From a virus (taxonomy: Duplodnaviria; Caudoviricetes): a stretch of DNA of 55,003 nt. A program made the position numbers and the translations under genes. The stretch spans positions 1-55,003 of IMG/VR virus record IMGVR_UViG_3300030328_002398; one strand, given 5' to 3'. Positions 144 to 52,873 of this stretch are shown piece after piece. The notes under the pieces were generated by a model, which worked only from the letters and a program-made list of their open reading frames with translations, had not been told where the DNA came from and did not search any database. How positions within the stretch are numbered: the first letter of the stretch is position 1; the number at the start of each line of letters is the position of its first letter.

Positions 144-1215
144 ATGACAACTCTACAAAAAAGAGAGCAAGGCCTCCTATCTGGATGGTCTGAGTTCTGC
201 GAGTGGGTTACAAGTACTGACAACCGCATTTATGTTGGTTGGTTCGGTGTCTTGATGATCCCTTGCCTATTAGCTGCTGCTACATGCTTCATCATAGCAT
301 TCATTGCAGCACCTCCTGTCGATATCGACGGAATCAGAGAACCTGTTGCAGGTTCATTCTTATATGGAAACAACATCATTTCTGGTGCTGTAGTTCCATC
401 TTCTAACGCAATTGGATTGCACTTCTATCCCATCTGGGAAGCTGCTACTCTAGACGAGTGGTTGTATAACGGTGGTCCTTATCAGTTAGTAATTTTCCAC
501 TTCCTTATCGGAATCTCTGCTTATATGGGCAGACAGTGGGAATTATCATATCGTTTAGGTATGAGACCTTGGATCTGTGTTGCTTACTCAGCTCCTGTAT
601 CTGCTGCTTTCGCAGTATTTTTAGTATATCCTTTCGGACAAGGAAGTTTCTCAGATGGTATGCCTCTAGGAATATCAGGTACGTTTAACTTCATGTTTGT
701 GTTCCAGGCAGAACATAACATCCTAATGCACCCATTCCATATGGCTGGTGTTGCAGGTATGTTTGGTGGTGCTTTATTCAGTGCTATGCATGGATCACTT
801 GTTACCTCTTCTCTAATCAGAGAAACTACTGACAATGAGTCACAGAACTACGGTTACAAGTTCGGACAAGAAGAAGAGACATACAACATTGTTGCTGCTC
901 ATGGATACTTCGGTAGATTAATCTTCCAGTATGCATCATTCAACAACTCTCGTTCATTGCACTTCTTCCTTGCTACATTCCCAGTTGTTTGTATCTGGCT
1001 TACCTCTATGGGTATATGCACGATGGCATTTAACTTGAATGGATTCAACTTCAACCAGTCGGTTGTTGATGCATCAGGTAAGGTTGTTCCTACATGGGGT
1101 GACGTTCTTAACAGGTATGGAAGTTATGCATGAAAGAAATGCACACAACTTCCCACTTGATCTTGCTGCTGCTGAGACATCTGAAGTTGCATTGATTGCT
1201 CCTTCAATTGGTTGA
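144..1215 (+). pseudogene. psbA: Photosystem II D1 protein, frameshifted at ~1113 (apparent 11-nt deletion; may be an assembly error)
   Basis: Clear D1 sequence to ...TWGDVLN. The frame stops at 1131-1133, while the canonical C-terminus [33 protein letters not shown] continues in another frame at 1114-1215. Residues RANL are missing. Confidence 0.9.
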
Positions 1216-1237
1216 TATAATCAATACAATCTGATAT

Positions 1238-1263
1238 AATGAGGGGGCAACCCCTCATTTTTT
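1238..1263 (+). terminator. Intrinsic terminator after psbA
   Basis: AATGAGGGG-GCAA-CCCCTCATT stem-loop followed by a T run. Confidence 0.8.
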
Positions 1264-1866
1264 ATGCTTGATTATAGGGATAAAAAGGTAACTGACTTTG
1301 AAGTCAAACTAATAACCCGAAAAGATGTCAAGGATTTTGTGGAGAACTGGCACTATTCACAGAGTATTAATGGGTTAAGAATATCTTATGTGTTTGGTTT
1401 GTTTTGTGATGGTAATCTTATAGGTGCAATGATATATGGCCCTCTAGGAATGGCAAACACATGGAAGAAGTATGGTAAAGAAGAGAGTGATGTAATAGAA
1501 CTAAGGAGACTTTGTTGTATTGATAATACTCCTAAATGTACAGAGAGTTACTTCATAGGTAAGACGCAGAGATGGTTGAAAAAATATACAAAACATCAGA
1601 TTATAGTTTCCTATGCAGATGCACACTATAATCATACAGGTATAATCTATCGTGCTACTAATTTTAAGTATGAAGGATTAACTTCTAAAGGTAGAGTGAT
1701 AGAATATGATGGAAGAACCTATCATGATAAGGCAATTAGAACTAAGTATAAAGGTAAGTTGAAACCTTTTGCACAGAGATTGAAAGATGCTTTGGATATT
1801 GGAGAAGCAAAGTATATTCAAACTCCAGGCAAACACATCTATACCTTTAGGTTGATTAGAAAATAA
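1264..1866 (+). CDS. Mom-family (GNAT-fold) DNA adenine modification protein
   Basis: Motifs WHYS, IELRRLCC, ESYFIG, IVSYAD..YNHTGIIYRATNF.YEG are typical of phage Mu Mom-like proteins. Confidence 0.7.
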   Translation: MLDYRDKKVTDFEVKLITRKDVKDFVENWHYSQSINGLRISYVFGLFCDGNLIGAMIYGPLGMANTWKKYGKEESDVIELRRLCCIDNTPKCTESYFIGKTQRWLKKYTKHQIIVSYADAHYNHTGIIYRATNFKYEGLTSKGRVIEYDGRTYHDKAIRTKYKGKLKPFAQRLKDALDIGEAKYIQTPGKHIYTFRLIRK

Positions 1867-1901
1867 CATTATGTTATAATAACAAAAGAGAGAAACACTT
1901 T

Positions 1902-2669
1902 ATGTCTGGAGATACTGGTAGTACAGAACAACCTAAGATTTTTTATACAAAAGTGCCTCAGACTGAAGCACATGATACCTTATTACTTGAAGGTAAGGTA
2001 AAGTCTGTTTATCAGATTGCAGATGAATCTGATAAGGTTTATATACATTTTCATGATAAAGTAACAGCAGGTAATGGTAGGAGAGTAGATTTTCCTGAAG
2101 GTAAGGGTAAGACTTGTTGTCTTATATCTGCATTACTCTTTGAGTTGATGGAGAGGAGAGGAATTAAGACACATTATATTGATTGTCCTTCTTTGGATAC
2201 ATTACTTTGTAAAAAATTGACAATCATACCAGTAGAAGTTATAGTAAGGAACATTGCTGCTGGTAGCATAGTTAAAAACACTACCATCACTGAAGGAATC
2301 AATATCTCACCACCTATAGTAGAATACTTCTTAAAGGATGATGAGAAAGATGATCCATTACTTACACATGACCGTGTTAGATTGATGGGTATTGATCCTG
2401 AACCCATGAAAGAGGTAGCAATTGAAGTAAATACACATCTTCAAATGTTATTCACTCTCATGGGTATAGACCTTGTAGATTTTAAATTGGAGTTTGGTTA
2501 CGATGCTCACGGCGATTTATTCTTGGCTGATGAATTATCACCTGACAACATGCGACTCTGGAAGAAGGGTACGAAAGAGAGATTCGATAAGGATCTTTTT
2601 AGAAAAGATCAAGGTGATATAGTGGAAGCATACCAATATATACTACAACAATTACGACAATTCGCATGA
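1902..2669 (+). CDS. purC: SAICAR synthetase
   Basis: EGKVK, PVEVIVRNIAAGS, LVDFKLEFG, LADELSPDNMRLW, DKDLFR motifs. Confidence 0.95.
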   Translation: MSGDTGSTEQPKIFYTKVPQTEAHDTLLLEGKVKSVYQIADESDKVYIHFHDKVTAGNGRRVDFPEGKGKTCCLISALLFELMERRGIKTHYIDCPSLDTLLCKKLTIIPVEVIVRNIAAGSIVKNTTITEGINISPPIVEYFLKDDEKDDPLLTHDRVRLMGIDPEPMKEVAIEVNTHLQMLFTLMGIDLVDFKLEFGYDAHGDLFLADELSPDNMRLWKKGTKERFDKDLFRKDQGDIVEAYQYILQQLRQFA

Positions 2670-2950
2670 ATTTCTTAATAGCAATAATGTCATTTGCAAA
2701 TTTTGTATTTTATCCTTTAGTGGTAGGTACAATTGTTGCAGTCATTATAGAACAGATTTTAAGAGCAAGAGGGGATGAAGATAATCCTAAAGATGTGAAG
2801 AATGTTTTTGTTGCTATGGGTGTAAGAAAGTATCTCTGGAGACAAGCATGGTTGTTTAATATCATCTGGTTTGTTGGGTATTTTATTCTTATGCTGACAA
2901 TTGGCAGACAACAACCTGCATCTATGCCTGATATGATATGGCAAGGCTAA
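2666..2950 (+). CDS. Small membrane protein (2 TM)
   Basis: ATGA overlap with purC; two hydrophobic segments. Confidence 0.75.
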   Translation: MNFLIAIMSFANFVFYPLVVGTIVAVIIEQILRARGDEDNPKDVKNVFVAMGVRKYLWRQAWLFNIIWFVGYFILMLTIGRQQPASMPDMIWQG

Positions 2951-2953
2951 ATA
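2947..2953 (+). promoter_or_regulatory. T4-like late promoter
   Basis: CTAAATA about 20 nt upstream of an ATG. The same element recurs before genes at 6783, 7324, 8111, 18356, 24201, 25001, 41755 and 52911. Confidence 0.6.
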
Positions 2954-2972
2954 GTTTTTTTCTACTACAATT

Positions 2973-3128
2973 ATGTGGAATTTAAATATTAAAGAAACAT
3001 TTCATAATCTCAAGGAGTGGGATAAGAAATGGGCAAGGAGGATACAAGATAAATTTAATCTAACTGATTATCAGATGTTATGTCTCGCTTTTGGTAAGGG
3101 ATTCATAATTGGAGCTATCCTTCTATGA
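2973..3128 (+). CDS. 51-aa hypothetical protein with C-terminal hydrophobic segment (not in ORF track)
   Basis: MWNLNIKETF...AFGKGFIIGAILL; fills the gap; ATGA overlap with the next gene. Confidence 0.7.
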   Translation: MWNLNIKETFHNLKEWDKKWARRIQDKFNLTDYQMLCLAFGKGFIIGAILL

Positions 3129-3361
3129 ATTTTACCGTATATTCTAAGGAAGGCTGTCCTTATTGCGAAAAGGTAGTTTCTGTGTTACAATTGGCTGAGT
3201 TGAAGTATGTACGGTACGAATTAGATAGAGATTTCACTAGTGAGGCCTTTTATGGTCAGTTTGGTGATGATTCTACTTTCCCACAAGTTGTTTGTGACGT
3301 AACTAACATCGGTGGGTGTTCTGATACTGTTAAATACCTTCAAGAACAAAATCTTGTTTAA
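3125..3361 (+). CDS. Glutaredoxin (NrdC-like)
   Basis: CPYC active site, TFPQV, IGG. Confidence 0.9.
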   Translation: MNFTVYSKEGCPYCEKVVSVLQLAELKYVRYELDRDFTSEAFYGQFGDDSTFPQVVCDVTNIGGCSDTVKYLQEQNLV

Positions 3362-3363
3362 AT

Positions 3364-3579
3364 ATGTTACACATGAGAGATCAATTACTGAGAGCAGTCC
3401 AAGCACATGCCAAAGGTGAGATCGCAAAACACCAAGCAAATGTAGAAGTATATCTTGAGCATCCAATGGGTATTGGAGAACACTCAGATATAACTGAAGC
3501 GATTCAAGTTGAACTTGACAAGATCGCACGATATCATGATCAATTAGAAGTTATAGAACATTACTTTAAAAAGAGATAG
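3364..3579 (+). CDS. Hypothetical protein
   Basis: Compact ORF in operon; P.GIGEH motif. Confidence 0.75.
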   Translation: MLHMRDQLLRAVQAHAKGEIAKHQANVEVYLEHPMGIGEHSDITEAIQVELDKIARYHDQLEVIEHYFKKR

Positions 3580-3580
3580 T

Positions 3581-3757
3581 ATGGAACCCGAAGAAAATCC
3601 ATTCTGGGGGGAGCCTACTCCCACTGATTTGTGGGATGATATGAAAAAACTAGATGCTCTTTATGAGGAACTGGATTGGGATCATAGAGATTATCTTGAA
3701 TTTACTATTGAAGATAATCATATAACTATTAGAAACAAATCACGAGAAGGACGTTAA
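3581..3757 (+). CDS. 58-aa hypothetical protein, possibly AbrB-like (not in ORF track)
   Basis: MEPEENPFWG...LDWDHRDYLEFTIEDNHITIRN; fills the gap exactly. Confidence 0.65.
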   Translation: MEPEENPFWGEPTPTDLWDDMKKLDALYEELDWDHRDYLEFTIEDNHITIRNKSREGR

Positions 3758-3758
3758 A

Positions 3759-4046
3759 ATGGAAGAAAAAATTGATTTACTCCTTATTGAAGTTAAAAGA
3801 ATGAGAAAGGAACTTAAAGAAGTTTCTGATTTGTTAGAACTTCATAGATCAGAGCATTCCATTGGTGGCCAAGGAGGATCTACTTCAGGATCTGGACAAT
3901 ATCAAGGTGGTCACATGCAACAACCTCAACAGGGTATGGGGCCAGGTATGGGAGGACAATTCCCAGGCGGTCAAGGTATGGGCCCAGGCATGGGTGGAAT
4001 GCCAGGTATGGGAGGTACTCCAGACTTTGCTGGTCCTGGCATGTAA
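3759..4046 (+). CDS. Coiled-coil protein with Gly/Met/Pro/Gln low-complexity tail
   Basis: Repeated QGMGPGMGG and GGMPGMGG. Confidence 0.75.
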   Translation: MEEKIDLLLIEVKRMRKELKEVSDLLELHRSEHSIGGQGGSTSGSGQYQGGHMQQPQQGMGPGMGGQFPGGQGMGPGMGGMPGMGGTPDFAGPGM

Positions 4047-4113
4047 AATCAGCTTTTAATTCCAAAAAAGCTCGGAAAAAAACTCAGGCTATTTTTTAAG
4101 CCACAAGGTCGTT

Positions 4114-5616
4114 ATGAAATTATTGGCACTTCGTTTATGTGCTCACGACTCAAATATTACATATTTTGATGGTGATCGAATAAAATACAAATCATTTGAA
4201 AGGGACTTTCAAGTCAAACACTTTGGCTTTGAAGGTCTTTATGGTTGGACACGTATATTGCAAGAATGGGATATTACACCACAGGACGTTGGTGCTGTAG
4301 GTATCGTTATGGACACTCATGCCCATAATGAGGTATATTGCGAACCAGAGAAAATTGAAGAAGATGTGGAAATTGCCCCTTTTCGTGATTTGGGGTTTAA
4401 TTGTCCAATTCATAGAATTGACCATCATTACGCTCATTCTCTAAGTTTTTGGCCTTTGGGAATTGAACCAAATCTCCATTTTGTGTTTGATGGGTTTGGT
4501 GATGATTGGATGTATAGAAGTGTTTGGAGAGATGGAAAGCTAATTGACAGTTCTAAGTCAAATGGTCAAATGATGCATTATTCCCCAAGTTTGGGGTTTA
4601 TAATGACCAGATTGGGTGCTTTGCTTGATATGCAAGGTCATTATTTGGATCAGGCAGGTAAAATAATGGCTTTGAAAGCATTTGGTCCTACTGATTGTCC
4701 AGATGTTCCAGATGTTGATAATATTGATAAATTAAATGATCTATGGGATTTTAATATACTTGAAAGATCTGTACATGATCAAAATTATACTTTAGGTTTT
4801 ATTGCAACTGCTCATGAGAAAACAGAGCAGTTATTCTTAAAACATTTTCAAGAATTTGCTCAGGATGGTGATGTTATAGGTTATTCTGGTGGTATTGCAC
4901 AGAATACTATTATTAATAAGGTACTAAAAGATAGATTCCCTAATCTTGTTATACCACCACATGCCAATGATCAGGGATTGAGTTTAGGTGTTATTGAATA
5001 TTTAAGAAAGAGATATAATTTGGATCCATTTGACAGAAGTGGATTTCCTTTTTGGCAAGATGATGAAACAGTACCACCACCATCCGATAAGACTATTAAA
5101 GATACAGCTGAACTATTAGCACAAGGAAAGATAGTTGGATGGCATCAGGGACATGGAGAAGTGGGTCCTAGAGCATTAGGTAATAGGAGTATATTGATGA
5201 GACCTGATGAACCAGAAGGAAAGGAATGGATTAATGGTAAAGTTAAGAAGAGGGAACCATATAGGCCATTTGGTGCTTCTGTATTAGAGGATAAGGTATC
5301 TCAACATTTTTATTGGAATGGACCTTCTCCTCATATGTTATATGTTACAGATGTATTGGAACCAGAGAAATACCCTGCAATTACTCATAATGATGGAACA
5401 TGTAGAATTAATACAGTATCTAAAGAACAGGAGTATTATTATGAATTAATTCTTAAATTTGAGAAGCTTACTGGGTTACCCGTACTTTTGAATACTTCTT
5501 TAAACGTAAATGGAAAACCAATTGCAGGCAGGGTTATTGATAGTTTAGAGACTTTTTATAAGAGTGATTTAGATGTTTTGGTATATGGTGATACACTAAG
5601 ACAAAAGGATATATAA
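4114..5616 (+). CDS. O-carbamoyltransferase (NodU/CmcH family), copy 1
   Basis: AHD, HHYAH, DGFG, AGKIMAL, GGIAQN, EVGPRALGNRS, KREPYRPFG, LNTSLN. Confidence 0.92.
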   Translation: MKLLALRLCAHDSNITYFDGDRIKYKSFERDFQVKHFGFEGLYGWTRILQEWDITPQDVGAVGIVMDTHAHNEVYCEPEKIEEDVEIAPFRDLGFNCPIHRIDHHYAHSLSFWPLGIEPNLHFVFDGFGDDWMYRSVWRDGKLIDSSKSNGQMMHYSPSLGFIMTRLGALLDMQGHYLDQAGKIMALKAFGPTDCPDVPDVDNIDKLNDLWDFNILERSVHDQNYTLGFIATAHEKTEQLFLKHFQEFAQDGDVIGYSGGIAQNTIINKVLKDRFPNLVIPPHANDQGLSLGVIEYLRKRYNLDPFDRSGFPFWQDDETVPPPSDKTIKDTAELLAQGKIVGWHQGHGEVGPRALGNRSILMRPDEPEGKEWINGKVKKREPYRPFGASVLEDKVSQHFYWNGPSPHMLYVTDVLEPEKYPAITHNDGTCRINTVSKEQEYYYELILKFEKLTGLPVLLNTSLNVNGKPIAGRVIDSLETFYKSDLDVLVYGDTLRQKDI

Positions 5617-5640
5617 TTTTATAGTTGCTAGATTTGCCTT

Positions 5641-6042
5641 TTGCAAGTTTTTAGTTCCCCTGACGATTATTTGTTTAATCTTCACACATGTTCACCTGCT
5701 GAAGCTAAGAAAATATGGAAATTATCCATTAAGGAAGAATTTAATCACAAATGCGCTTATTGTGGATCAAGAGAGAATTTAACTCTCGACCATTTAATAC
5801 CAAGATATTCTGGGGGTACTAACGAGAATACCAATCTCGTGTGTGCCTGTTTTTTATGCAATAGTGATAAATCCCATGAACCTTGGCAAGAATGGTATCG
5901 GAAACAGGATTTCTACGATCCATATAAAGAACAACGCATATTAAAGTGGCAACAACAGAATAAGAAGAAAGAGTATGAGGATAGAGCTGGGGTAATCCTG
6001 ACTCGCAACAACTTCATATACAAAAGATTAAAAAATTCTTAA
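5641..6042 (+). CDS. HNH endonuclease
   Basis: CAYCG, LTLDHLIP, GGTN...NLVCAC..CN..K; TTG start. Confidence 0.88.
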   Translation: MQVFSSPDDYLFNLHTCSPAEAKKIWKLSIKEEFNHKCAYCGSRENLTLDHLIPRYSGGTNENTNLVCACFLCNSDKSHEPWQEWYRKQDFYDPYKEQRILKWQQQNKKKEYEDRAGVILTRNNFIYKRLKNS

Positions 6043-6067
6043 ACTGTATCAAAACGAACACCATTAC

Positions 6068-6096
6068 TTGCATATATAATAAAAGTGTGTTATTAT
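6068..6096 (+). promoter_or_regulatory. Sigma70-type promoter for the riboswitch/DUF4278 transcript
   Basis: TTGCAT-17 nt-TATTAT immediately upstream of the first aptamer. Confidence 0.6.
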
Positions 6097-6104
6097 TAAC
6101 ACAT

Positions 6105-6153
6105 ATCGTTCAACCTGATACATTCAGGTCGCAAGTAAGCCGACTCGGAACGG
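6105..6153 (+). ncRNA. Glutamine riboswitch-like aptamer 1 (glnA / Downstream-peptide family)
   Basis: P1 CGTTC(6107-6111)/GAACG(6148-6152); P2 ACCTGA/TCAGGT; core CGCAAGTAAGCCGAC; lies upstream of a DUF4278 gene. Confidence 0.75.
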
Positions 6154-6154
6154 A

Positions 6155-6339
6155 ATCGTTCATCCCATGTTTCATCTAGCAGTTATTGCAACCGCCTTTA
6201 CTTGTATCGAAGCTCAGACTCTTTTAGATAAGATGGATGAGTTTAAGATAGATGAAGAGACACGAGCTGAGATGATCAGCGTAGTGATAGAAGAAACACC
6301 TCATTGTGAGTGGGACGCAAAAGCCGACTAAAGGAACGG
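6155..6339 (+). ncRNA. Glutamine riboswitch-like aptamer 2 with a ~143-nt ORF-bearing P2 loop
   Basis: CGTTC(6157-6161)/GAACG(6334-6338); TCCCA(6163-6167)/TGGGA(6311-6315); core CGCAAAAGCCGAC mirrors aptamer 1. Confidence 0.65.
6167..6331 (+). CDS. 54-aa protein nested in aptamer 2 (not in ORF track)
   Basis: MFHLAVIATAFTCIEAQTLLDKMDEFKIDEETRAEMISVVIEETPHCEWDAKAD*; hydrophobic N-terminus, two Cys. Confidence 0.65.
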   Translation: MFHLAVIATAFTCIEAQTLLDKMDEFKIDEETRAEMISVVIEETPHCEWDAKAD

Positions 6340-6374
6340 ACTTAAAAAACCCAACTACTTTAGGAGTTAATCCA

Positions 6375-6518
6375 ATGGCAAAAGTCACATACAGAGGTGT
6401 CGAGTATGACACCGCAGAGTACAACAAAAAGGTACTCGATGAAGCAGCTCAATTAAGAAATCACGATCTAATGTATCGTGGTATCAGACACGAACATAAG
6501 TTCGCATCTAAGAGCTAG
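6375..6518 (+). CDS. DUF4278-family small protein
   Basis: RBS AGGAG at 6362; MAKVTYRGVEY...LMYRGIRH with duplicated YRG motif. Confidence 0.85.
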   Translation: MAKVTYRGVEYDTAEYNKKVLDEAAQLRNHDLMYRGIRHEHKFASKS

Positions 6519-6540
6519 ATTCGCTTGCACTCAAGACACT

Positions 6541-6566
6541 AAAGAGACCCTAGGGTCTCTTTTTTT
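6541..6566 (+). terminator. Intrinsic terminator
   Basis: AAAGAGACCC-TA-GGGTCTCTTT followed by a T run. Confidence 0.85.
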
Positions 6567-6600
6567 GTGTTATAATATATAAAAAGACTGCTATTCTCAG

Positions 6601-44700: not shown

Positions 44701-47700
44701 GTTTGTGGATCAATTCCACTGGACAAAGACCTTGGATTTGGTGTATCCATGAAGTCGTTCGCTCAGGACGTAAGGAACCTATATCCACAACAGGATAGAG
44801 ATAACTATCTGTCTGATCCAGAACCTTCAATTACTTATTCTAGTGCTGCTGTTGTTGGTGAAGTTGTCACTAATGATAAGAAGAGATCTATTACTCGTGA
44901 AGCATTATCCTACTTCATGCAGGGTCAACAAGTAGGTTTCGCTGTTACTGGTGCTGTGATAACTGGTACTGGTAATACTACTATCACACTTTATACTGAT
45001 GTAGAACATAAACTCAATCAGGTTCAATCTCTTTCTTTAATTAATCCAGGCTCTGGATATAATAATGGATCTGGTATTGCTACAGTATTATATGCTGCAG
45101 ACCTTGAGAATAACCAGTTATCTGGTAAGAACGCTGCTGCAGAGGTTACTGTTTCTGCTGCTGGTACTGTCACTAACGTAGAACTTATTGATGGTGGTTG
45201 TACTTATGGTATAGGAAATACCATGACGATTTCTGCTTTCCCAGCAGGATCTCCTACTACAAATGCAGTAGTTAGAGTTGATTCTATCTTCCAAAATGCA
45301 GGTGATGGACTAACATTATCTGGATTTGAGACTTCAGAACTCAATGGTACATTTAAGATTGTAGATATTCCAACTGCAAGGACTGTTTCTGTTGAGATAG
45401 GAACATCAAGAACTCTAGCGCCTTACTTCGTTGGGAGGGATGACAGGAGACAGGCGACATATACTCTTGCAAACGTAGGTGCTGGTATTACTTGGATTGA
45501 TGTAGATCGTTCATCTGGTATTGCAACTATAAGAACGGATACTAATCATACTCTAGTTTCTGGTAACGTATTTACAATCTGGGGATCGAAGAACCCATTA
45601 TTTGAAGATAGACTATTAGTTGTTGATGATGTTGAGAGTAATATTCCTTTAAGGAGTATTGTATGTAATGTTGGTATTATTACTGCTGGTATTGATACTT
45701 CATACTCAATTAGTGATGCAACTCTATTTGGAACAGGTATTAGTGCAAATGCTAAGACATTAGGTTTAGGTGAGAATAATCTTGCAGGCAGGGCAACATA
45801 CTTCTATGCAGGTATATCAACCTCAATAGATGCACCATTAACATCTACTGATACTTCAATCACACTAACATCCACTGAAGGATTCAAACGTGGTGATTAC
45901 TGCATGATTAATGGTGAGGTTGTCAGATTTGTTAATAGTAACATTAACAAGATCCTTCGTGGTCAGTTTGGTACTCTTGCTTCTACTGCTATTGTAGGAA
46001 CTACTATCAAGAAGATAGATGTTCTACCAATGGAACTACGCAGACCATCTATCCTTCGTGCTTCTGGTCATACATTTGAATACCTTGGATATGGTTCTGG
46101 TAACTATTCAACTTCATTACCACAGAAACAAGATAGAGTTCTATCCGATCAGGAAACACTTGCTGCTCAGAAGAAAGAACTAGACGGTGGTACTGTTGTT
46201 TATACTGGTATGAACGACTCTGGTGACTTCTTCACAGGATATAAGAAGTTATCATCTATTACTGGTGAGGAAGAAGTTCTTGAGGCACCTGTATTCACAT
46301 ATACTGGTGATGATGCAGAGGCAGAATCTACTAAGAGAGTATCTGGTGTATTTGATGAAGTTCTAGTTAGAGAATCACTAACTGTTGAAGGTGGAGATAA
46401 TAACAACAGAACATCACAGTTCTATGGTCCTGTTAATTTCACTGAGAAACTAACAAGTAACTCCAATGAGGGTATTGAGACTATCAATATGTACCTCAGA
46501 GGTGATGCACCACAGGGTAAATTAATAACAGTTGGTATTTCTACTCCTGTTGGAGTTAAGAGATCTGGAGACTTATCATTTGTTGGTATTCCTGATGCTG
46601 GTGGTTACTTAGGACACATATATGCTGAAGGTGAGTGGAGAAGGTTTGGTGTAATATCTCAGGAAAGAGATAGGAACTTCCTTAAGGTAGATCAGATTGG
46701 TATTGGTCAGTCTAATGTTGGTGTATTCAACTTTAAAGATTCACTAGAAGTTAATGGTGTTGTTAAAGTTAAAGACCTATTTGTATCAGGTATTGTTACC
46801 TTTGCATCTAACCAGTCATTCGCTGGTGTGTCTTATGACACCTTAGTTGTTAAGAAGGTAGTTAATCTCTGGGGATATAATACTACTGGTGGTATTTCAC
46901 CACAGGGTATTCCTTGGGAGACATATGGATATTATACTATTGTAGATGAAGGTGGAACATCAAGACTTAATAATGTAGAAGTTGTTGGTACTTATGTATC
47001 CTTCAAACCTTCTGCACACATTAAGAATGAGTCTTCATGGCATTCTACATGGTCAGGTATCAGTACATTTAATGGACAACTTAATGTTGGAGATCTTAGT
47101 TGTGGTGTTGGTTCTATTACTGTTAATAAGTTTGAAGCAAGAACTGCATATGCTGAGACACTTACAGTACCTAAGAATCTATATGCAACTAATGGTATTG
47201 TTACTGACTTCAAGGCAACTGACGCATCCATCACTAGAAATTACAGTGATGTAGGTATTACTACATTGTCCCATGTTGGTACTTCTTATGTAAATGAGAC
47301 CAATATCTACACAGGTATTGCAACTCAGATAAGAATATCTAATCATATTATTTCACCTCAGTTATATGCTCTTGCTGGTGTTGTTACTAACCTGAACTCT
47401 ACCAATATTTGGTCTGCTAACGTATCGGGTGCTGCTGTTACTGCAACTGATTTACACTTTACAGATGACCTTTATGGTCCTGACATGTATGTCAATACTG
47501 GTGTTGTTACTGCTATCAAGTCACAGTACATTGGTGGTCTAGGTAATGCAGGTTCAGGACAACCTGAAATAAGTGTCAATCTTAACTCTGGTATTGTTAC
47601 CTCTCTGACTGGTTACGCCATGACGATGGAGAGGATCAACATGAAGACTGGTGGAGACGGTGTTTGTTCTCCTAAGATCTACGCTGACGTTGGTATTGTT

Positions 47701-48768
47701 ACCAACCTATCTGCTGGATCTAACAAGTCTATGGTTATTGAGGCGGGTTCTACTGGTATGATCAAGTCTTATAGATTTGAGTCTACTGCATCCGCTGGTA
47801 GTAATGTATCTCCATTCGTTGTTGCTTCAAATACTAAGGTTGCTAACCTTAACGCTGATTTCCTCGATGGAATGAACGCAGAAGCAAATACTCAAAACGC
47901 AGCAAGTATTGTTTCAAGAGACTCTGCTGGTAGTTTCAAGGCAAATACTATTGTTGCGAACTCCTTTAATGGTGGTGCATTGAGTGGTAATGGCGGATTA
48001 ACTATCAGTAACGCTGGTACTGGTGATGCCATTGATTGTAATGGTACAATGAATGTATCAACTACATTGACAGTTGGTACTAAGGTAATTTGCCCAGACT
48101 TTGAAGGTAAGGCAGATGCTGCTGGTCTTGCAGATGACTGTAAGGGTGCTGCAGGTCAGGTTCTTTACAACTCTAGTCAGAATAATACTACTACAAGTAG
48201 TAACATGCAGTTTAATGGTACTAAACTGAGTGTTAAAGACTTTGAGTGTAATGGTACATTTACTGCTTCTGGTACTGCACAGGTTAATGCTGCTACTGCA
48301 CAGAAGGCAACAAACCTTGCTGGTGGTTCTTCATGGGCAATTCCATACTGGTCTTCAGCAAACGTAACGGATTACAATAGTTCCTTTAAGATCACCAGCG
48401 GACAGAATCTTTCAGTTCCAGGCGATATTACTGCATTTGCTTCTGATATTAGACTTAAGACAAGTATCCAACAGATTGACAACGCAGTTGCTAAGGTATG
48501 TTCCTTGAGTGGATTCACTTATACTCATAATGAGATAGGTAAGAAATTATTAGGTGGATCTGGTAACAGAAGATTTGCTGGTGTATCTGCACAGGCAGTA
48601 CAGGATGTTCTACCAGAGGCAGTTAGACCTGCTCCTACTGATGAGAACTATCTAACAGTACAGTATGAGAAACTTGTTCCTCTATTAATTGAGGCGATCA
48701 AGGAACTCAAAGATGAGATAGATGATCTAAAATCTAATAAGGTTGAGAGGATCTACAAACCCCAATAA
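41794..48768 (+). CDS. Large tail fibre protein with C-terminal intramolecular chaperone (peptidase S74)
   Basis: N-terminal PFKTIQRAL.EAARF; beta-rich body; C-terminal SDIRLK...GVSAQ.V..VLPEAV...V.YEKLVPLLIEAIKEL. Confidence 0.88.
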   Translation: MPLSRLENFLKNAEGNILYVNPSDFDATDSIENRGNSQTRPFKTIQRALIEAARFSYQSGQNNDKIDRTTILAYPGVHYIDNRPGLTVTNNNGTAEYKVRKNAAWQASTLSQFTNETNFDVLDPNNELYKYNSTEGGAILPRGTSIIGFDLRKTKLRPLYVPDPEDDNMQYSGVLRVTGTCYFTAFTIFDADISKVAYYDYDSNTKTPTFSHHKLATFTFADGMNNVLINGTDSQLTDLDMYYFKVAKAYGDSSGRPLGDYPTFTDFEPNVDEFRIVGDLAADPVGITSIKAGDGNTPTSIITVDTDRKHGLFKDTPVLIAGITTAINSYNGSFLVDEVLSDTEFRFVTPAIPGNALPTAQEIQNSSVIVEPDTVGSASPYVFNCSLRSVYGMNGLDCDGDKATGFKSMVCAQFTGISIQKDDNAFVLYNPTTAIFNDTSTVSEAEKPLHSNSRAIYKPNYETSHMRVRNNAVVQLVSVFAIAYARHFHAERGGDASITNSNSNFGQTALEASGFRPSAFDRDDVGYITHIIPPRELQNEESTSSWLTLDVAKTIGVGVTDRLYLNSYNSIDIVPPAEVDSFSIGARKGETLYLSLVNTLSGQAVQETYETPILMQVPSGIGTSYKKEYQVIRNSGVNAIISNVLQFTANHQLVNGEKIRVFSNTGETPNGIVNDKVYYAIAGGNLAADRIQLASTFNDAASRRPITGLANNGGKLTVTSTVSDKNPGDPGHPIQWDSGNNNWYILAHPSTTYNTIFPAINTIGLGVIGSETGTTYIKRRVDNRSLLDRLYRMRYVLPKEHTNARAPKPGFILQESKTVGVSSASFLTADLSNPTQLKNVKIVKNATFGSQTLTFTTEQQHRLQKGDLVTLRNIDSVNNSTGVFNVGYNGEHLIDTIPTAKSFTVAGISTDPGAFLNQINQRTTQQQIDALPTVQRSKSADTFSVYRVQESRPHVPGTSGQDGVYNLTVVCGSIPLDKDLGFGVSMKSFAQDVRNLYPQQDRDNYLSDPEPSITYSSAAVVGEVVTNDKKRSITREALSYFMQGQQVGFAVTGAVITGTGNTTITLYTDVEHKLNQVQSLSLINPGSGYNNGSGIATVLYAADLENNQLSGKNAAAEVTVSAAGTVTNVELIDGGCTYGIGNTMTISAFPAGSPTTNAVVRVDSIFQNAGDGLTLSGFETSELNGTFKIVDIPTARTVSVEIGTSRTLAPYFVGRDDRRQATYTLANVGAGITWIDVDRSSGIATIRTDTNHTLVSGNVFTIWGSKNPLFEDRLLVVDDVESNIPLRSIVCNVGIITAGIDTSYSISDATLFGTGISANAKTLGLGENNLAGRATYFYAGISTSIDAPLTSTDTSITLTSTEGFKRGDYCMINGEVVRFVNSNINKILRGQFGTLASTAIVGTTIKKIDVLPMELRRPSILRASGHTFEYLGYGSGNYSTSLPQKQDRVLSDQETLAAQKKELDGGTVVYTGMNDSGDFFTGYKKLSSITGEEEVLEAPVFTYTGDDAEAESTKRVSGVFDEVLVRESLTVEGGDNNNRTSQFYGPVNFTEKLTSNSNEGIETINMYLRGDAPQGKLITVGISTPVGVKRSGDLSFVGIPDAGGYLGHIYAEGEWRRFGVISQERDRNFLKVDQIGIGQSNVGVFNFKDSLEVNGVVKVKDLFVSGIVTFASNQSFAGVSYDTLVVKKVVNLWGYNTTGGISPQGIPWETYGYYTIVDEGGTSRLNNVEVVGTYVSFKPSAHIKNESSWHSTWSGISTFNGQLNVGDLSCGVGSITVNKFEARTAYAETLTVPKNLYATNGIVTDFKATDASITRNYSDVGITTLSHVGTSYVNETNIYTGIATQIRISNHIISPQLYALAGVVTNLNSTNIWSANVSGAAVTATDLHFTDDLYGPDMYVNTGVVTAIKSQYIGGLGNAGSGQPEISVNLNSGIVTSLTGYAMTMERINMKTGGDGVCSPKIYADVGIVTNLSAGSNKSMVIEAGSTGMIKSYRFESTASAGSNVSPFVVASNTKVANLNADFLDGMNAEANTQNAASIVSRDSAGSFKANTIVANSFNGGALSGNGGLTISNAGTGDAIDCNGTMNVSTTLTVGTKVICPDFEGKADAAGLADDCKGAAGQVLYNSSQNNTTTSSNMQFNGTKLSVKDFECNGTFTASGTAQVNAATAQKATNLAGGSSWAIPYWSSANVTDYNSSFKITSGQNLSVPGDITAFASDIRLKTSIQQIDNAVAKVCSLSGFTYTHNEIGKKLLGGSGNRRFAGVSAQAVQDVLPEAVRPAPTDENYLTVQYEKLVPLLIEAIKELKDEIDDLKSNKVERIYKPQ
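47190..47720 (+). repeat. Degenerate G[IV][VIA]T peptide repeats in the fibre shaft
   Basis: NGIVT, VGITT, TGIAT, AGVVT, TGVVT, SGIVT, VGIVT at intervals of about 15-35 aa. Confidence 0.55.
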
Positions 48769-48791
48769 ATATTAAAAAATGGGATTATTGA

Positions 48792-49589
48792 ATGAATTAC
48801 ATTGATGAATCGTGGATTAAAGTATCGGACAATATCAAATATCAAAACCGTAGGATTGGTGAAAGGGACAATCACCCTATTGTTGTAGTTGATAATGTCC
48901 TTGATAATCCCGACCTATTTGTAGAGAATATAATAAAAAAGACTCCTCTTGAGAAGGTAATTCACGAGACGATAGTATTTCCAGGCAATCAAGGTGCATG
49001 TTCCATATTATTACAGGAATTGCACACCTTGGTTGCTTGGTTTATTAATAATTTTAGTGATTTTAAAGGTGTAGTAGGTAATTCAAATGATCTTGATATA
49101 ACAGATCAAGTTAATGTAGTTCGTGGTGGGATGAAATGTCCTAGAGTTAGTGCTCAACCACATATTGATAATGCAATGTTTGCTTATGTTCTTTATTTGA
49201 ATAAAGAGGAAGATTGTGTTGGTGGTACTTCATTCTTTAAACATGAATCTACTGGTGAAACTAATATGGAATATGTTGATAATTCATATAAGAGAACAGA
49301 AGAGTATTGGAATCTTAAAGAATGGAGATATGAATTTGATAGGAAGAAGAGACTAGAAGAGGTTACATTAGACTCTGGATTTATTGAAGATGCTTATGAA
49401 GAGTATCATCATGTACCTATGAAGTACAATAGAATGATATTATATCCTGCTTATCTTTGGCATCACCCTATCATTAAAAATGATATGTTTAATGAACCAA
49501 AAGAACCAAGATTTAGCATTTCTGGTTTTGTGAATCAGGAGTATTTTATTAACCCACCAGATGATGAAGTCTTCACGCCAGTTAACTGA
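48792..49589 (+). CDS. DUF6445-like 2OG-Fe(II) oxygenase
   Basis: VVVDNVL.NPD, PHID, VLYLN....C.GGTSFF.H, MKYNRMILY....WH. Confidence 0.82.
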   Translation: MNYIDESWIKVSDNIKYQNRRIGERDNHPIVVVDNVLDNPDLFVENIIKKTPLEKVIHETIVFPGNQGACSILLQELHTLVAWFINNFSDFKGVVGNSNDLDITDQVNVVRGGMKCPRVSAQPHIDNAMFAYVLYLNKEEDCVGGTSFFKHESTGETNMEYVDNSYKRTEEYWNLKEWRYEFDRKKRLEEVTLDSGFIEDAYEEYHHVPMKYNRMILYPAYLWHHPIIKNDMFNEPKEPRFSISGFVNQEYFINPPDDEVFTPVN

Positions 49590-50142
49590 TTATATATTTA
49601 ATTATCAGGATGTCTTACCCCAAGAGAGTCATAAAAAGTTGTTAGACTTATGCGACTCATATGAGTGGCCTGAGTATGATAATTGTAGAGAGGATAATTT
49701 ATATAATTTGCATGGATATAGGTCACATAAGTTATTATCAGAGGATGATGGTGAGATATATGGTCTAATTCATAGAGCAATGATGAGAGTTATGCCTAAG
49801 ATATATAAAGACTATTCTGTGATTAATCCACCAGATTCTCCAGAGTATGATAAATACTCAGGATACTGGTTATGTAAATATCCTGAGAATGGATACCTAT
49901 CTATTCATACGGATGCTGATGGTGATGCTGGTTCTGTAACTGCATCATATAATATTAATGATAACTATGAAGGTGGTGAGATTTGCTTCTGGGGTGATAC
50001 TAACTTAGATAAACATAGTAACTCTATACATGTATATCCAAGTAACTTATTATATCCACATGAAGTGAAACCAGTAACTAAGGGTACAAGATACTCTGTT
50101 ATTGTATGGTTATCATATCAAAAAGGACAACCTTGGATCTAA
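49561..50142 (+). CDS. Prolyl-4-hydroxylase-like 2OG-Fe(II) oxygenase
   Basis: KY..., HTD, NDNYEGGE, PSN..YPHEVKPVTKGTRYS. Confidence 0.88.
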   Translation: MMKSSRQLTDYIFNYQDVLPQESHKKLLDLCDSYEWPEYDNCREDNLYNLHGYRSHKLLSEDDGEIYGLIHRAMMRVMPKIYKDYSVINPPDSPEYDKYSGYWLCKYPENGYLSIHTDADGDAGSVTASYNINDNYEGGEICFWGDTNLDKHSNSIHVYPSNLLYPHEVKPVTKGTRYSVIVWLSYQKGQPWI

Positions 50143-50146
50143 AGAA

Positions 50147-51211
50147 ATGACAGTAGATTTTGACAGTATATCAAAAGCAGTTAATAATCAACCCAAGTTG
50201 TTGAATGATACTGATGTGACAAATATCAGGAAGATTGTTGATGCTAACCCATCATTATTTGAATCTTCATGGGATCAACCTAAGACTAAACGTAGGGATG
50301 CTGGTGTATATTTTAAGAAAACAATAAAGGATGGAGTTGAAGTAGATAGTCCTAAGTATGCTTTTCTATTCTATTGTCCAACAGCAATAGATCAGTACCA
50401 ATTACAAGATGGAACTATATTAAATTGTCCCCTCTTTAAATATAATGATGGCACTAAAGGATTGTGGTTTGATGCTGATGGTAATATTGAGTGGGAGTTA
50501 TTACATTTATCAGATGAACCTCCAGTATTATCAGTAACTATTGATGCAATATGCCAACTTGCTTCTGATATTACTGGTAATCAAGATACACAGTCATTGA
50601 GAGAATATTTTAATACAGTAGATAACATAGAGACAGATAGACATGACTGGAGTTTTAATACTTTATGGATAAGTACTAAACATAAGTCTATAAAAATAGG
50701 TTTGAGTAAGACTGATGCTGCGTGGATTCCTGAAGATGTATATGGAATACTTGATAAAGTATGTGGATCTAAGAATAGTAATGCTTATAAGAATACTGAA
50801 CAGATGTTCAATACATTGGGTATAATGCAAGTAGAAACAACTCATACAATATTGACAACTAATGTTGAGTTTGATTCAACAGGATTAAAGAAAGAGATTG
50901 GATTTGAAATGGGTACATCATATAGTTTGGATGCACCACATGGTACTAATCCAATGGATAATTTTGGTGCCTTTAATAGCAAACAATCTTCATATAAGGA
51001 AGGTGTTCGTTTAATTATGGCAGATAGTAAAGATTATAATTGGATTAGTGATGAGTGGAGAGAACAGTTAGAAGTATGGGATACAAATACACACGTTGAT
51101 GCAGTCTTTGGCGATGTAATGGTTACATCATCCAAAGAAGGATGGAAAACTGATTTATTCTACGGGTTGTCTGGTTCCAAGACGGGACAACAACCTACTA
51201 ATTTAATATAA
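50147..51211 (+). CDS. Hypothetical protein
   Basis: Long ORF; no recognised motif. Confidence 0.75.
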   Translation: MTVDFDSISKAVNNQPKLLNDTDVTNIRKIVDANPSLFESSWDQPKTKRRDAGVYFKKTIKDGVEVDSPKYAFLFYCPTAIDQYQLQDGTILNCPLFKYNDGTKGLWFDADGNIEWELLHLSDEPPVLSVTIDAICQLASDITGNQDTQSLREYFNTVDNIETDRHDWSFNTLWISTKHKSIKIGLSKTDAAWIPEDVYGILDKVCGSKNSNAYKNTEQMFNTLGIMQVETTHTILTTNVEFDSTGLKKEIGFEMGTSYSLDAPHGTNPMDNFGAFNSKQSSYKEGVRLIMADSKDYNWISDEWREQLEVWDTNTHVDAVFGDVMVTSSKEGWKTDLFYGLSGSKTGQQPTNLI

Positions 51212-52873
51212 GTATCCGTTTCCACTTGTAGTATATTTGGTAGCACCACTACCACCTGATGTACCGCCTTGTCCTTGAGCACCAGTTTGACCGCAAGGGA
51301 ATCCACATCCATCATAGTCACCACCGCCACCTACTCCAGTTTGTCCTTGCTGACCACTCTGACCACTTGCTGAGTAACTTCCACCACCTCCACCAGTACC
51401 GCCTGTTCCTCCCTGACCTGCGTTGGTTCCACCTGCTGCTCCTGCTGCACCGCCACCTGCTCCTGTCAAATGAGTTCCAGAAATATTAACCCACCAACCT
51501 GCGGATGGATCCCAAGAGTATCCTAGACCCCACGCACCTCTTCCTCCTTGTCCGCCTTCTCCACCTGCTCCACCATCATTGTTACAATGTCTCTTTCTTC
51601 TCCAACAGAAAGTGCTGTTGCATCTACGACCACCGCCATGACCACCGCAACCACCTTGACCGCCTTTTCCTCCTTTTCCTCCTCCACCACCGCCACCTTC
51701 AGCGGAACTTAATGCACCTGCACCTTGACATGGAGTTGCAACGTGCATAGAAACTCCACCAGGCCCCCCACTACTGAGAGTACCACTACCATCTACGGGT
51801 CCTTGACTTAAGTTATATCCTGCTGGTGATCCTGCCCAACCATACGCACGACCTCCACTTGTTATTTGGAATACTATAGTATTTCCCTGTGCTCCTGAAC
51901 TAATGGTAACTGCTGGACTTCCCTGACTTCTTGAACCTGCATGACCACTCAATGTAATAGTCTTATTGATTTTTGCTCCCCATTCACCACCAAATATACT
52001 TGATGTACTCAACTGGTTCCAGTTACCAGAACAGTTTGCTTCAATCTTATTGCAAGAATTACGGAAACTACTGAAACTTATTTGACCACTTGTAGGAACA
52101 CCATTATTCTGAGATATATTTGCTATCTCACCGCCTCTATAGTAACTTGATATATTGTTTCTATTAGAACCAAAGGCACTCTTCAAAGCACTAACAGAGA
52201 TAGAACCACTACCAAATACTGTATTATAACTTTTACTTGTACTTCCAAAGGTTTGAACTGGTTCTCCTAATACATTATTACCCCACGCCTTTATAGGAGC
52301 ATCATCAGGTATTGTATTAGGATATGTTTGTTCTAATGTTAGTGGTGCAGATGAATCAGAACATGCCATTGACAGATCATTTTCATCATATACCATAGTA
52401 TATGTTGCCTCGTTATTATCCCTATCTACAAGTTTGATCTCATCCTTCCTACCATTGTACTTACCAATACATGATGAAAGGAACTTAACACAGTCCTTGA
52501 GATCCCTGTTGGCATAAGGTAAGTCAGTTAATTCTCTTCTGAATTTTGCATTGACAAATACTGTACCATTTTCATTGAAATATCTACTAAGTAATAAACT
52601 ATCATCTATAAATGGGTCATCATCATTTGTACCCACTAATATGACATTTCTTACACCAATATCTCTATCCTCATCAAACTCTTCCTTTCTAAACCATATC
52701 TTACAATAGAAATCACCAACAGTTGATAGACTTTTGTACAGATGTACATCATTCTCTGTAGTGTATTGGGAGTATTTAAACCCATCCACCTCAAGGTATG
52801 CTTCTGGATTCTTTGAGATCTCTAGATCTCTAAGCATACCTTCTTCTGAATAATTAGTAGGGAGTGATGTCAT
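51203..52873 (-). CDS. Glycine-rich putative adhesin / fibre-tip protein
   Basis: YYRGG and N..VPTSG.ISFS.F motifs followed by poly-Gly repeats. Confidence 0.7.
   Translation of the reverse strand: MTSLPTNYSEEGMLRDLEISKNPEAYLEVDGFKYSQYTTENDVHLYKSLSTVGDFYCKIWFRKEEFDEDRDIGVRNVILVGTNDDDPFIDDSLLLSRYFNENGTVFVNAKFRRELTDLPYANRDLKDCVKFLSSCIGKYNGRKDEIKLVDRDNNEATYTMVYDENDLSMACSDSSAPLTLEQTYPNTIPDDAPIKAWGNNVLGEPVQTFGSTSKSYNTVFGSGSISVSALKSAFGSNRNNISSYYRGGEIANISQNNGVPTSGQISFSSFRNSCNKIEANCSGNWNQLSTSSIFGGEWGAKINKTITLSGHAGSRSQGSPAVTISSGAQGNTIVFQITSGGRAYGWAGSPAGYNLSQGPVDGSGTLSSGGPGGVSMHVATPCQGAGALSSAEGGGGGGGKGGKGGQGGCGGHGGGRRCNSTFCWRRKRHCNNDGGAGGEGGQGGRGAWGLGYSWDPSAGWWVNISGTHLTGAGGGAAGAAGGTNAGQGGTGGTGGGGGSYSASGQSGQQGQTGVGGGGDYDGCGFPCGQTGAQGQGGTSGGSGATKYTTSGNGYLY

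Follow-up and report, generated by a model that had tools for sequence, protein, structure and literature searches.

The 55,003-bp stretch of DNA analyzed here (the window) is the entire record for the virus IMGVR_UViG_3300030328_002398 and comes from a T4-like cyanomyovirus that belongs to the S-SSM7 group. In this window the pentamer CCWGG occurs only where a G directly precedes it or a C directly follows it, and the same dependence on the neighboring base is found at other palindromes that begin with C and a pyrimidine (C-Y). From these sequence statistics, we consider it probable that a DNA modification in the context GCY protects such sites, whatever its origin (phage or host) and its chemistry.

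The original prediction for this DNA held that about 48 CCWGG sites all read GCCWGG or CCWGGC and that CCGG is absent. An exact count over the full window gives 48 CCWGG (26 CCAGG and 22 CCTGG, the first at 704 and the last at 51759), each with G at position -1 or C at +1, and neither CCGG nor CGCG occurs; the examples it named (43972 and 43981, 27381, 32402 and 3942) were all recovered. The bases before and after the site are T..C in 23 cases, G..A in 9, A..C in 6, G..T in 5, C..C in 2, G..C in 2 and G..G in 1. Relative to the A strand, 13 sites have the 5' G only, 33 the 3' C only and 2 have both, so that the rule is strand symmetric. Expected numbers were obtained from 300 synonymous-codon shuffles, which keep the protein sequences and the overall codon usage; a site is called flanked if a 5' G or a 3' C lies directly beside it, and expected numbers below are shuffle means. 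HCCWGGD is found 0 times versus 42.7±4.2 expected (shuffle minimum 33), CCGG 0 versus 32.1±5.2 (minimum 20) and CGCG 0 versus 8.7±2.7, far from the near-expected frequencies that would have spoken against the prediction. Flanked CCWGG number 48 versus 15.3 expected, and unflanked ones 0 versus about 42.6. The share of sites that would qualify by chance, put at about one third in the original prediction, is roughly 0.26-0.30 here and 16% in the 92 loci without the rule described below. The sites lie at the following positions.

CCWGG (span 704..51763), part 1: 704, 1825, 3942, 3963, 3984, 4002, 4035, 8483, 8516, 14903, 16236, 16287
CCWGG, part 2: 16693, 18650, 19032, 22222, 22295, 23500, 24695, 26373, 26514, 26760, 27174, 27381
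CCWGG, part 3: 28907, 29282, 30301, 32402, 33128, 33514, 34140, 34191, 35519, 36263, 41211, 41391
CCWGG, part 4: 42016, 42043, 42850, 43972, 43981, 44218, 44527, 44659, 45046, 48418, 48981, 51759

In-frame Pro-Gly dipeptides account for 46 of the 48 sites. Their proline codons are CCA (24) and CCT (22), with no CCC and no CCG; because CCC or CCG ahead of GGN would make CCGG, every Pro-Gly gives CCWGG. Otherwise rare codons are used at these dipeptides, as had been proposed: GGC makes up 71 of the 1297 Gly codons elsewhere in the window (5.5%) versus 27 of 27 Gly codons after Pro where the Pro codon follows A, C or T, but only 2 of 19 where it follows G. A codon-pair or translational bias is thus ruled out, since the choice of Gly codon tracks the last base of the codon that precedes the one for Pro. 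In the Pro-Gly frame there are 46 flanked sites versus 10.9 expected and 0 unflanked versus 30.9, and in the other frames 2 flanked versus 4.3 and 0 unflanked versus 11.8. Selection therefore acts on the DNA itself, via the two synonymous positions adjoining each CCWGG.

The flank rule at other sites and among relatives

The flank-base dependence was scanned for all 4-, 5- and 6-base palindromes. In the window it extends to the following sites.

CTGCAG (span 118..48154), 7 sites, 7 of 7 G/C-flanked: 118, 8880, 23312, 30846, 45095, 45137, 48149
CYCGRG, 4 of 4 flanked: 15509, 17805, 24089, 29049
CCATGG, 2 of 2 flanked: 21425, 36972
CCTNAGG, 1 of 1 flanked: 37920 (ends 37926)

The unflanked forms of all four are absent (0 versus 8.7 expected for CTGCAG, 3.5 for CYCGRG, 6.7 for CCATGG and 5.2 for CCTNAGG), and the flanked forms lie close to their expected numbers, with 7 versus 8.7, 4 versus 1.4, 2 versus 2.5 and 1 versus 2.0, respectively. 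The control words CATG, CTAG, CATATG, CTTAAG and CTATAG are unconstrained, both in the window and in the locus comparison below. This pattern shares with restriction-site avoidance in phages a strong, codon-independent loss of palindromes (besides HCCWGGD and CCGG, TTCGAA is found 0 times versus 12.6 under the null that preserves proteins and codons) and a word set that varies between close relatives. It differs in being conditional on the neighboring base, the G-flanked C-Y sites being neutral or enriched. No earlier description of flank-conditional avoidance in cyanophages was found in literature searches, supplementary files being outside their scope.

The rule recurs among related cyanophages. 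The closest cultured relatives of the window are the Synechococcus phages S-SSM7 and S-SSM6a (gp32 identity 79%), and S-SSM7, the genome of which is complete, obeys the rule genome-wide (232,878 bp; 196 of 206 CCWGG flanked). So do three IMG/VR genomes, G002 (99% complete; 208 of 215), G001 (112 of 115) and G003 (91 of 93). Sf-FS3, the sister isolate of S-SSM7, does not (270 of 334 CCWGG unflanked), and neither do S-SCSM2R (60 of 64 unflanked), P-SSM7, P-TIM68 and four AG-345 single-cell viruses. Of the 152 IMG/VR loci examined, each with gp32 or a Mom-family gene as anchor, 38 follow the rule (404 kb; 347 CCWGG with 1 exception) and 92 do not (993 kb; 908 of 1085 CCWGG unflanked, approximately 16% flanked), the other 22 having been excluded for fewer than four sites or intermediate fractions, which is slightly biased against loci with exceptions. 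On a gp32 tree, from a quick IQ-TREE search in which 10 of the 86 rows have too few sites to label, the rule needs at least 3-4 changes versus a mean of 14.7 with shuffled labels. The locus L011 (IMG/VR, 20.9 kb), sister to the clade of the window and S-SSM7, is intermediate, with 18 of 27 CCWGG flanked and 9 of 27 unflanked. Because the two kinds of site are interspersed there and not in blocks, L011 suggests an ongoing gain or loss of the rule rather than recombination.

The rule holds beyond CCWGG in these relatives as well. In S-SSM7 and G001-G003 pooled, flanked sites make up 607 of 629 CCWGG, 91 of 91 CTGCAG, 54 of 57 CCATGG, 35 of 38 CCTAGG, 21 of 21 CYCGRG, 43 of 44 CCTNAGG, 3 of 3 CCGCGG and 7 of 7 CCGG, and in S-SSM7 the flanked forms are near neutral expectation (e.g., CTGCAG 27 versus 38.5 and CCTNAGG 18 versus 12.3). 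In the 38 rule loci all CCATGG (22 of 22), CCTNAGG (25 of 25) and CYCGRG (6 of 6) and 13 of 14 CCTAGG are flanked; the flanked share of the same four sites is 22-43% in the 92 non-rule loci. All sites rescued by G begin with CC or CT. In S-SSM7, CAATTG is absent with no rescue (flanked, i.e., in GCA context, 0 versus 35.5), and two words with an internal GCA, ATGCAT and GTGCAC, are wholly avoided. Since CAATTG is not rescued, and ATGCAT and GTGCAC are avoided despite their GCA, the protected context appears from these counts to be GCY rather than any GpC. The complete avoidance of ATGCAT, GTGCAC and GCATGC and the unrescued G-flanked CAATTG in S-SSM7 speak against a blanket GpC modification, and we prefer GCY to it. 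Words that carry GCY internally are consistent with this context: the observed/expected ratio (O/E) of GGCC is 0.70 in rule loci versus 0.25 in non-rule loci, and that of AGCT 0.43 versus 0.25 (GCGC, 0.19 versus 0.21), although these and the other comparisons of rule and non-rule loci are phylogenetically non-independent, which counts against them as support for a protected context.

S-SSM7 and Sf-FS3 share 93 conserved Pro-Gly positions. Of these, 79 are flanked only in S-SSM7, the two phages differing there by synonymous changes of the flank alone; both phages have the flank at 12 and neither has it at 2, and no position is flanked only in Sf-FS3. These positions bear on the second explanation in the original prediction, in which a methyltransferase for HCCWGGD and CCGG causes their mutational loss; deamination of methylcytosine would wear these sites away and spare G-flanked ones. 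The overall CpG depletion of the window (O/E 0.39, at a G+C content of 36.6%) and a slight excess of CCAG/CTGG (415 versus 357.6) would agree with it. However, C-to-T change would alter Pro-Gly, and the proteins keep Pro-Gly while the neighboring synonymous bases become G or C; C-to-T change cannot create a three- to fourfold excess of G/C flanks in the Pro-Gly frame (46 versus 10.9) or the 79 flank-only differences, and the same flank rule is found at sites that such a methyltransferase is not known to act on. This explanation is scarcely credible.

Words other than the C-Y sites are also avoided, and the sets differ among related phages, as different host ranges would give. GTNNAC is avoided in the window alone, and ATGCAT and CAATTG in S-SSM7 and not in the window or Sf-FS3. 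Across the window 18 GTNNAC remain versus about 120 expected (e.g., at 5690, 7602, 12546 ... 49581), all NN classes except GTCGAC being depleted; the closest relatives keep this word (L001-L009 at approximately 2.5 per kb, S-SSM7 with 701), and L044 has 0 in 8 kb. The avoidance of GTNNAC in the window would seem to reflect a further restriction pressure, specific to its lineage. ATGCAT, CAATTG, GACGTC, GGTACC, GTCGAC, GTGCAC, TACGTA, TTCGAA, GACGCC and CACGTA all have zero counts in S-SSM7. TTCGAA is nearly everywhere absent (0 in the window, 0 versus 31 in S-SSM7, 0 in Sf-FS3, 0 versus 8 in the podovirus Syn5 (L170) and 0 in the AG-345 viruses), P-SSM7 being the sole checked whole genome with some (4 in 50 kb). 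CpG is extremely depleted in P-TIM68 (L366, L384-L391; O/E 0.11 over the whole genome and 0.06 in one 50-kb stretch), and its O/E is 0.12-0.22 in one gp32 clade (loci L040, L019, L077, L034 and L058).

Proposed protection in a GCY context and its alternatives

The rule is probably explained as follows. Several host restriction endonucleases would select against many short palindromes and so purge the genome, and the purge of sites starting with CC or CT (CCWGG, CTGCAG, CCATGG, CYCGRG and CCTNAGG; in relatives also CCTAGG and CCGCGG) would halt where either strand has a G directly before the site. The phage DNA would carry a sequence-specific mark, located either on the cytosine in 5'-GCY-3' or on the base pair of that cytosine, and a marked cytosine as the first base of a site would prevent cutting even with one strand marked. 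Sites that the proteins require would then be recoded at two adjacent synonymous positions to overlap the protected motif. The main case would be Pro-Gly, which is forced into CCW GGN once CCGG is forbidden and would be recoded with NNG before Pro or GGC for Gly. The counts of sites, the recoding of codons, the extension to several site types and the presence or absence of the rule among relatives are observed; from them we infer the existence of the modification, its place on the outer C and its phage rather than host origin. The first explanation in the original prediction, a cytosine modification in GpC context that blocks host restriction, is thereby the best supported, if indirectly, and its reach now extends to CTGCAG, CCATGG, CYCGRG and CCTNAGG; its details changed, in that the context appears to be GCY and not any GpC, and the single CCNGG-type enzyme that it invoked is not needed, CCGG avoidance being separate.

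Exceptions to the rule converge on the same base. Among the 29 exceptions in S-SSM7 and G001-G003, 28 overlap GGWCC (21 of 22 CCWGG exceptions and all 7 of the CCATGG, CCTAGG and CCTNAGG exceptions), compared with a baseline overlap of 11%, and GGWCC-overlapped sites are near neutral frequency (10 versus 15.7 and 6 versus 9.7). We take the first C of GGWCC to be the position of SinI-type methylation; it would be the outer C of the overlapped site, so that these exceptions appear to converge on the same outer cytosine as the GCY rule. GGWCC overlap is thus a second permissive context in S-SSM7 and G001-G003. The window is without such exceptions (0 versus 5.0 expected; 0 of 100 shuffles reached 0). 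In S-SSM7 itself, GGWCC numbers 150 versus 180 expected, GGCC 97 in total and GGGCC/GGCCC 0 versus 50.6, which fits a protection of GGWCC from a GGNCC-type enzyme.

Alternatively, there may be no modification, each host enzyme intrinsically failing or cutting poorly next to a preceding G:C pair, e.g., with the 7-bp palindrome HCCWGGD as the true CCWGG target. Outer bases are read by enzymes of the CCGG family such as Cfr10I, BsaWI, AgeI, NgoMIV and PfoI. That one flank suffices and that the rule is strand symmetric (13, 33 and 2 sites) would also be given by a dimer reading two half-sites; moreover, no modifying enzyme was found in the window, S-SSM7 or G001-G003 (see below), and the residual CCGG is G-flanked in 12 of 12 cases even in Sf-FS3, which is otherwise without sign of the rule. 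However, identical discrimination against G would be needed for at least six unrelated sites, and the GGWCC-overlap exceptions, common to four site types, would be left unexplained. Other phages also avoid the same words without rescue: in AG-345-D19, the opposite of the window, unflanked CTGCAG numbers 0 versus 8.5 and flanked CTGCAG 1 versus 8.6, and flanked CYCGRG numbers 0 versus 4.8 in P-SSM7 and 0 versus 3.7 in AG-345-L05. Because these phages avoid the same words without it, rescue by G appears not to be intrinsic to the site sequences. A shared flank rule as an intrinsic property of each enzyme is very unlikely, and we regard an explanation with no modification at all as unlikely. Because one flank rule spans at least six unrelated site types, all starting with C-Y, a modification is favored over a property of the enzymes.

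The avoidance of CCGG is a pressure separate from the CCWGG rule, since relatives avoid CCGG without following the rule and the G flank gives no rescue in the window. A single CCNGG-type enzyme as the source of both was rejected, the two being separable in relatives and all 7 CCGG retained in L092 being G-flanked. Residual CCGG is G-flanked in 29 of 29 cases over G002, G001, Sf-FS3, L092 and S-SCSM2R.

Several observations weigh against a protective GCY mark. The G flank fails to rescue CCGG (flanked, 0 versus 9.6-10.2 in the window and 0 versus 61.5 in S-SSM7), and S-SSM7 avoids GGGCC/GGCCC completely despite the GCC they contain. Flanked CCWGG in avoidable frames of S-SSM7 is mildly depleted (11 versus 28.5±5.5), so that protection is possibly imperfect. 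Searches of all six frames of the window, S-SSM7 and G001-G003 gave no match in any of the five genomes for C5 (PF00145), N4/N6 (PF01555) or D12/Dam (PF02086) methyltransferases, in line with the original statement that no cytosine methyltransferase is visible in the window. Nor was TGT/DpdA (PF01702) found in the same frames, and no frame matched a regular expression for the motif order of C5-methyltransferases. TET/JBP (PF12851) was likewise found in none of the five, but the control genomes gave no match either. A gene of the Mom family, described below, occurs without the CCWGG rule in the Mom-anchored loci L089, L093, L094 and L152 and in phage S-SCSM2R. Phages without this gene show some rescue: besides the flanked CCGG of Sf-FS3, CCATGG is flanked in 3 cases versus 3.8 expected and unflanked in 0 versus 12.7 in AG-345-L05, and in 3 versus 3.0 and 0 versus 3.5 in AG-345-E15. 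The window also encodes a protein of the S-adenosylmethionine (SAM) lyase family which, if active, would argue against a methyl-derived mark in this phage. Finally, the rule was seen in 0 of 80 loci (835 kb) of T7-like cyanopodoviruses.

The absence of the rule from these 80 loci would also be expected if the phage avoids the targets of its own host-DNA-degrading nuclease or nucleases, without any methyltransferase. T4-like cyanophages degrade host DNA though they are not known to contain hydroxymethylcytosine, and the podovirus Syn5, isolated on the laboratory host from which S-SSM7 also came, shows no avoidance of any site of the rule (only of TTCGAA and GGGCCC). Against such self-avoidance, a dozen different palindromes are involved, in a set that varies between close relatives; intermediate genomes such as L011 exist, which would be lethal under self-cleavage, and S-SSM7 has no equivalent of the HNH nuclease gene of the window at the corresponding position. 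We hold self-avoidance to be highly improbable and the chance that either it or mutational loss is right to be slight even when the two are combined, the remainder of our doubt going to causes not listed here.

A protective GCY mark could instead be made by the host and acquired by replicating phage DNA, with no phage gene involved. The lack of a phage methyltransferase in the complete genomes would then follow, and the varied C5-methyltransferases of hosts, including a SinI-type one (GGWCC), could explain the GGWCC exceptions of the S-SSM7 group. However, the rule is near absolute (1 unexplained exception in 677 CCWGG over the window and the four genomes), which is hard to obtain if the previous host decides. 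Only 45 of the 401 host genomes searched, and not one of the five named strains, have a C5-methyltransferase, rescue at the same sites is on in some phage lineages and off in others, and the window carries the gene of the SAM-lyase family. We therefore judge a host-made mark improbable.

Candidate modifying genes in the window

The genes of the window that could bear on a modification are as follows; they agree with the original inventory of two carbamoyltransferases, nine oxygenase-fold proteins and one Mom homologue.

1264..1863, + strand: Mom-family protein, 200 aa (PF25680, E 9.4e-36, 123.8 bits), an unproven candidate modifier
4114..5613, + strand: carbamoyltransferase of NodU/CmcH type (Carbam_trans_C, E 3.1e-54; Carbam_trans_N, E 9.9e-08)
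38009..39673, + strand: second carbamoyltransferase (Carbam_trans_C, E 3.3e-50; Carbam_trans_N, E 2.1e-14)
24239..24766, + strand: S-adenosylmethionine lyase family, T3 SAMase-type anti-restriction (PF23780, E 3.1e-16, 59.9 bits)
36562-37161, 39612-40385, 40343-41065 and 41058-41747, + strand: 2-oxoglutarate (2OG)-Fe(II)-oxygenase/DUF6445 cluster (span 36562..54611), family matches
48792-49586, 49561-50139, 53290-53892 and 53895-54611, + strand: rest of the same cluster
14780-15268: ninth 2OG-Fe(II)-oxygenase/DUF6445-family protein, outside the cluster

One of the nine proteins that match the 2OG-Fe(II)-oxygenase or DUF6445 families is under the Pfam cut-off. These nine and the two carbamoyltransferases are possible tailoring enzymes. 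The window also codes for a SAICAR-synthetase-like protein, an HNH nuclease, psbN, peptide deformylase, heme oxygenase, transaldolase, PhoH, a PD-(D/E)XK nuclease, gp32, T4-type baseplate and tail genes, and ThyX, the sole thymidylate synthase seen in it.

Among the genes of the window, only that of the Mom family is recognizable as a DNA-modification gene. All five genomes that follow the broad rule (the window, S-SSM7 and G001-G003) carry it, and it is absent from Sf-FS3, P-SSM7, P-TIM68 and AG-345-L05, the independent rule lineages being known from contigs that are 3-17% complete. Its presence alone is insufficient for the CCWGG rule, and it does not cleanly track the effect because phages without it show partial rescue. 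Mom of phage Mu makes N6-carbamoylmethyl-adenine, an anti-restriction mark. The likeness to the Mu system lies in the family of the gene. The differences are that an adenine mark in a one-strand context cannot yield a site-symmetric rule, both orientations being used here; that 8 of the 48 CCWGG in the window carry A where the Mu consensus requires a pyrimidine; and that the Mom-bearing S-SCSM2R does not follow the rule. A Mom mark on the central adenine is thus ruled out by the two orientations of the flank relative to the A strand, and the only feature common to CTGCAG, CCATGG and CYCGRG is the G:C flank. The mom homologue of S-SCSM2R has been proposed as a counter-defense in a passage of the report on that phage (PMC12801897).

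The SAM-lyase gene lies between a tail-tube-like gene and gp26. Homologs of 38-41% identity are present in P-SSM7, P-TIM68 and AG-345-L05, and none was found in S-SSM7, G001-G003 or Sf-FS3, so that among the five rule genomes only the window has it.

Two known cytosine systems invite comparison. In a post-replicative hypermodification that may also involve a glycosyltransferase, phage C5-methyltransferases paired with TET/5mYOX methylate mainly GpC[C/T], at least in the portion of Burke et al. (2021; PMC8256090) that deals with context, and the GCY context proposed here would match that main specificity, the rescue being seen at CC- and CT-starting sites and not at CAATTG, ATGCAT or GTGCAC. 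Likewise, many glycosyltransferases, heptose-pathway genes, carbamoyltransferases and 2OG oxygenases are annotated in the genomes of the S-SSM7 group; these genomes differ in that neither a C5-methyltransferase nor a TET/JBP homolog was found in the five rule genomes. The carbamoyltransferase system that acts on 5-hydroxymethylcytosine (5hmC; the 5cmdC system) modifies all cytosines irrespective of context, as stated in the relevant part of Yang et al. (2021; PMC8670742). Two proteins of the window have the same Carbam_trans_N/C domains. The DNA of the window differs in that it cannot be globally modified, because most restriction sites are still avoided, and a source of 5hmC was not found, neither a C5-methyltransferase nor TET nor a thymidylate synthase other than ThyX having been seen in the window.

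Other candidates in the S-SSM7 group were rejected. Neither G001-G003 nor Sf-FS3 have a counterpart of S-SSM7 gene 129, which carries an MTS domain and an NPPH motif, and the G002 counterpart of S-SSM7 gene 257 is only weakly like small-molecule O-methyltransferases (E 0.18-0.25). Ten more lineage-specific S-SSM7 proteins gave no match to a DNA-modification family. Approximately 70 lineage-specific genes are common to S-SSM7 and G002 and missing in Sf-FS3. Among other annotated S-SSM7 genes, SSSM7_239 (L084:45003-45437, 145 aa), annotated as NAD synthetase, is a GIY-YIG SegE-type nuclease domain (E 2.3e-56), and SSSM7_173 (L083:47240-48379), annotated as a putative cytoplasmic protein, has a Druantia DruA-like region (E 1.4e-11). 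As to which enzyme would install the GCY mark, our tentative and still doubtful proposal is a non-canonical, possibly SAM-independent one, with a Mom GNAT retargeted from adenine N6 to the amino group of cytosine as the leading candidate and the genome recoded to overlap GCY; the carbamoyltransferases and 2OG oxygenases would perhaps tailor such a mark.

Possible host restriction and implications

Restriction is usually considered minor in Prochlorococcus and Synechococcus. By REBASE name, we take the site types of the rule to be PstI-, NcoI-, AvrII-, MstII/Bsu36I-, AvaI- and EcoRII/BstNI-like. Of 401 genomes from the family of Prochlorococcus and marine Synechococcus, 45 have C5-methyltransferase genes, the neighbors of which include Vsr, SinI-, EcoO109I-, BglI- and IceA-like nucleases and a Z1/HATPase module; none was found in the 5 named host strains searched. 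EcoRII-C was found in none of the 401 genomes, but the control genomes gave no match either. A restriction pressure from picocyanobacterial hosts thus seems plausible from their gene content. Islands with C5-methyltransferases are present in the low-GC picocyanobacterial genomes L264 (G194), L263 (G262) and L261 (G068). One low-GC host island combines Vsr, a C5-methyltransferase, HATPase_c_3 and a Z1-domain protein, and one low-GC picocyanobacterial genome has a SinI-like nuclease with its C5-methyltransferase. A C5-methyltransferase of approximately 690 aa adjoins DUF6339 and recurs at a similar chromosomal position in several 1.7-Mb genomes.

The psbA protein of the window (144-1130, + strand) shows 94% identity with high-light Prochlorococcus and 88-89% with Synechococcus RCC307. 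Its psbA is therefore Prochlorococcus-like, yet its closest relatives among cultured phages come from Synechococcus hosts (strain WH8109 for S-SSM7). Since this protein is closest to high-light Prochlorococcus, the natural host of the phage may be Prochlorococcus.

If a protective GCY mark holds, sequence statistics alone would reveal a modification, its target motif GCY and its use in cultured, ecologically important phages. A simple test, the comparison of G-flanked with unflanked C-starting palindromes, could then be applied to any phage genome, and AG-345-D19 would be useful as a natural negative control for the rescue. As no known modifying enzyme was found, a new activity may sit among the approximately 70 lineage-specific genes. 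GpC-limited marks appear unlikely to give genome-wide protection, in the section of a preprint on such marks (bioRxiv 10.1101/2023.12.21.572611) that takes up the point, and the work on GpC hypermodification, as far as those sections go, leaves the question of how a mark in one context defends against enzymes of other specificities. The answer suggested by the window and its relatives, if true, is that the phage recodes vulnerable sites onto the mark, which would turn a three-base context into a genome-wide shield. The pattern would at the same time read out the restriction pressures exerted by wild hosts, namely PstI-, NcoI-, AvrII-, MstII-, AvaI-, EcoRII- and HpaII-like activities and others directed against TTCGAA, GTNNAC and further words.

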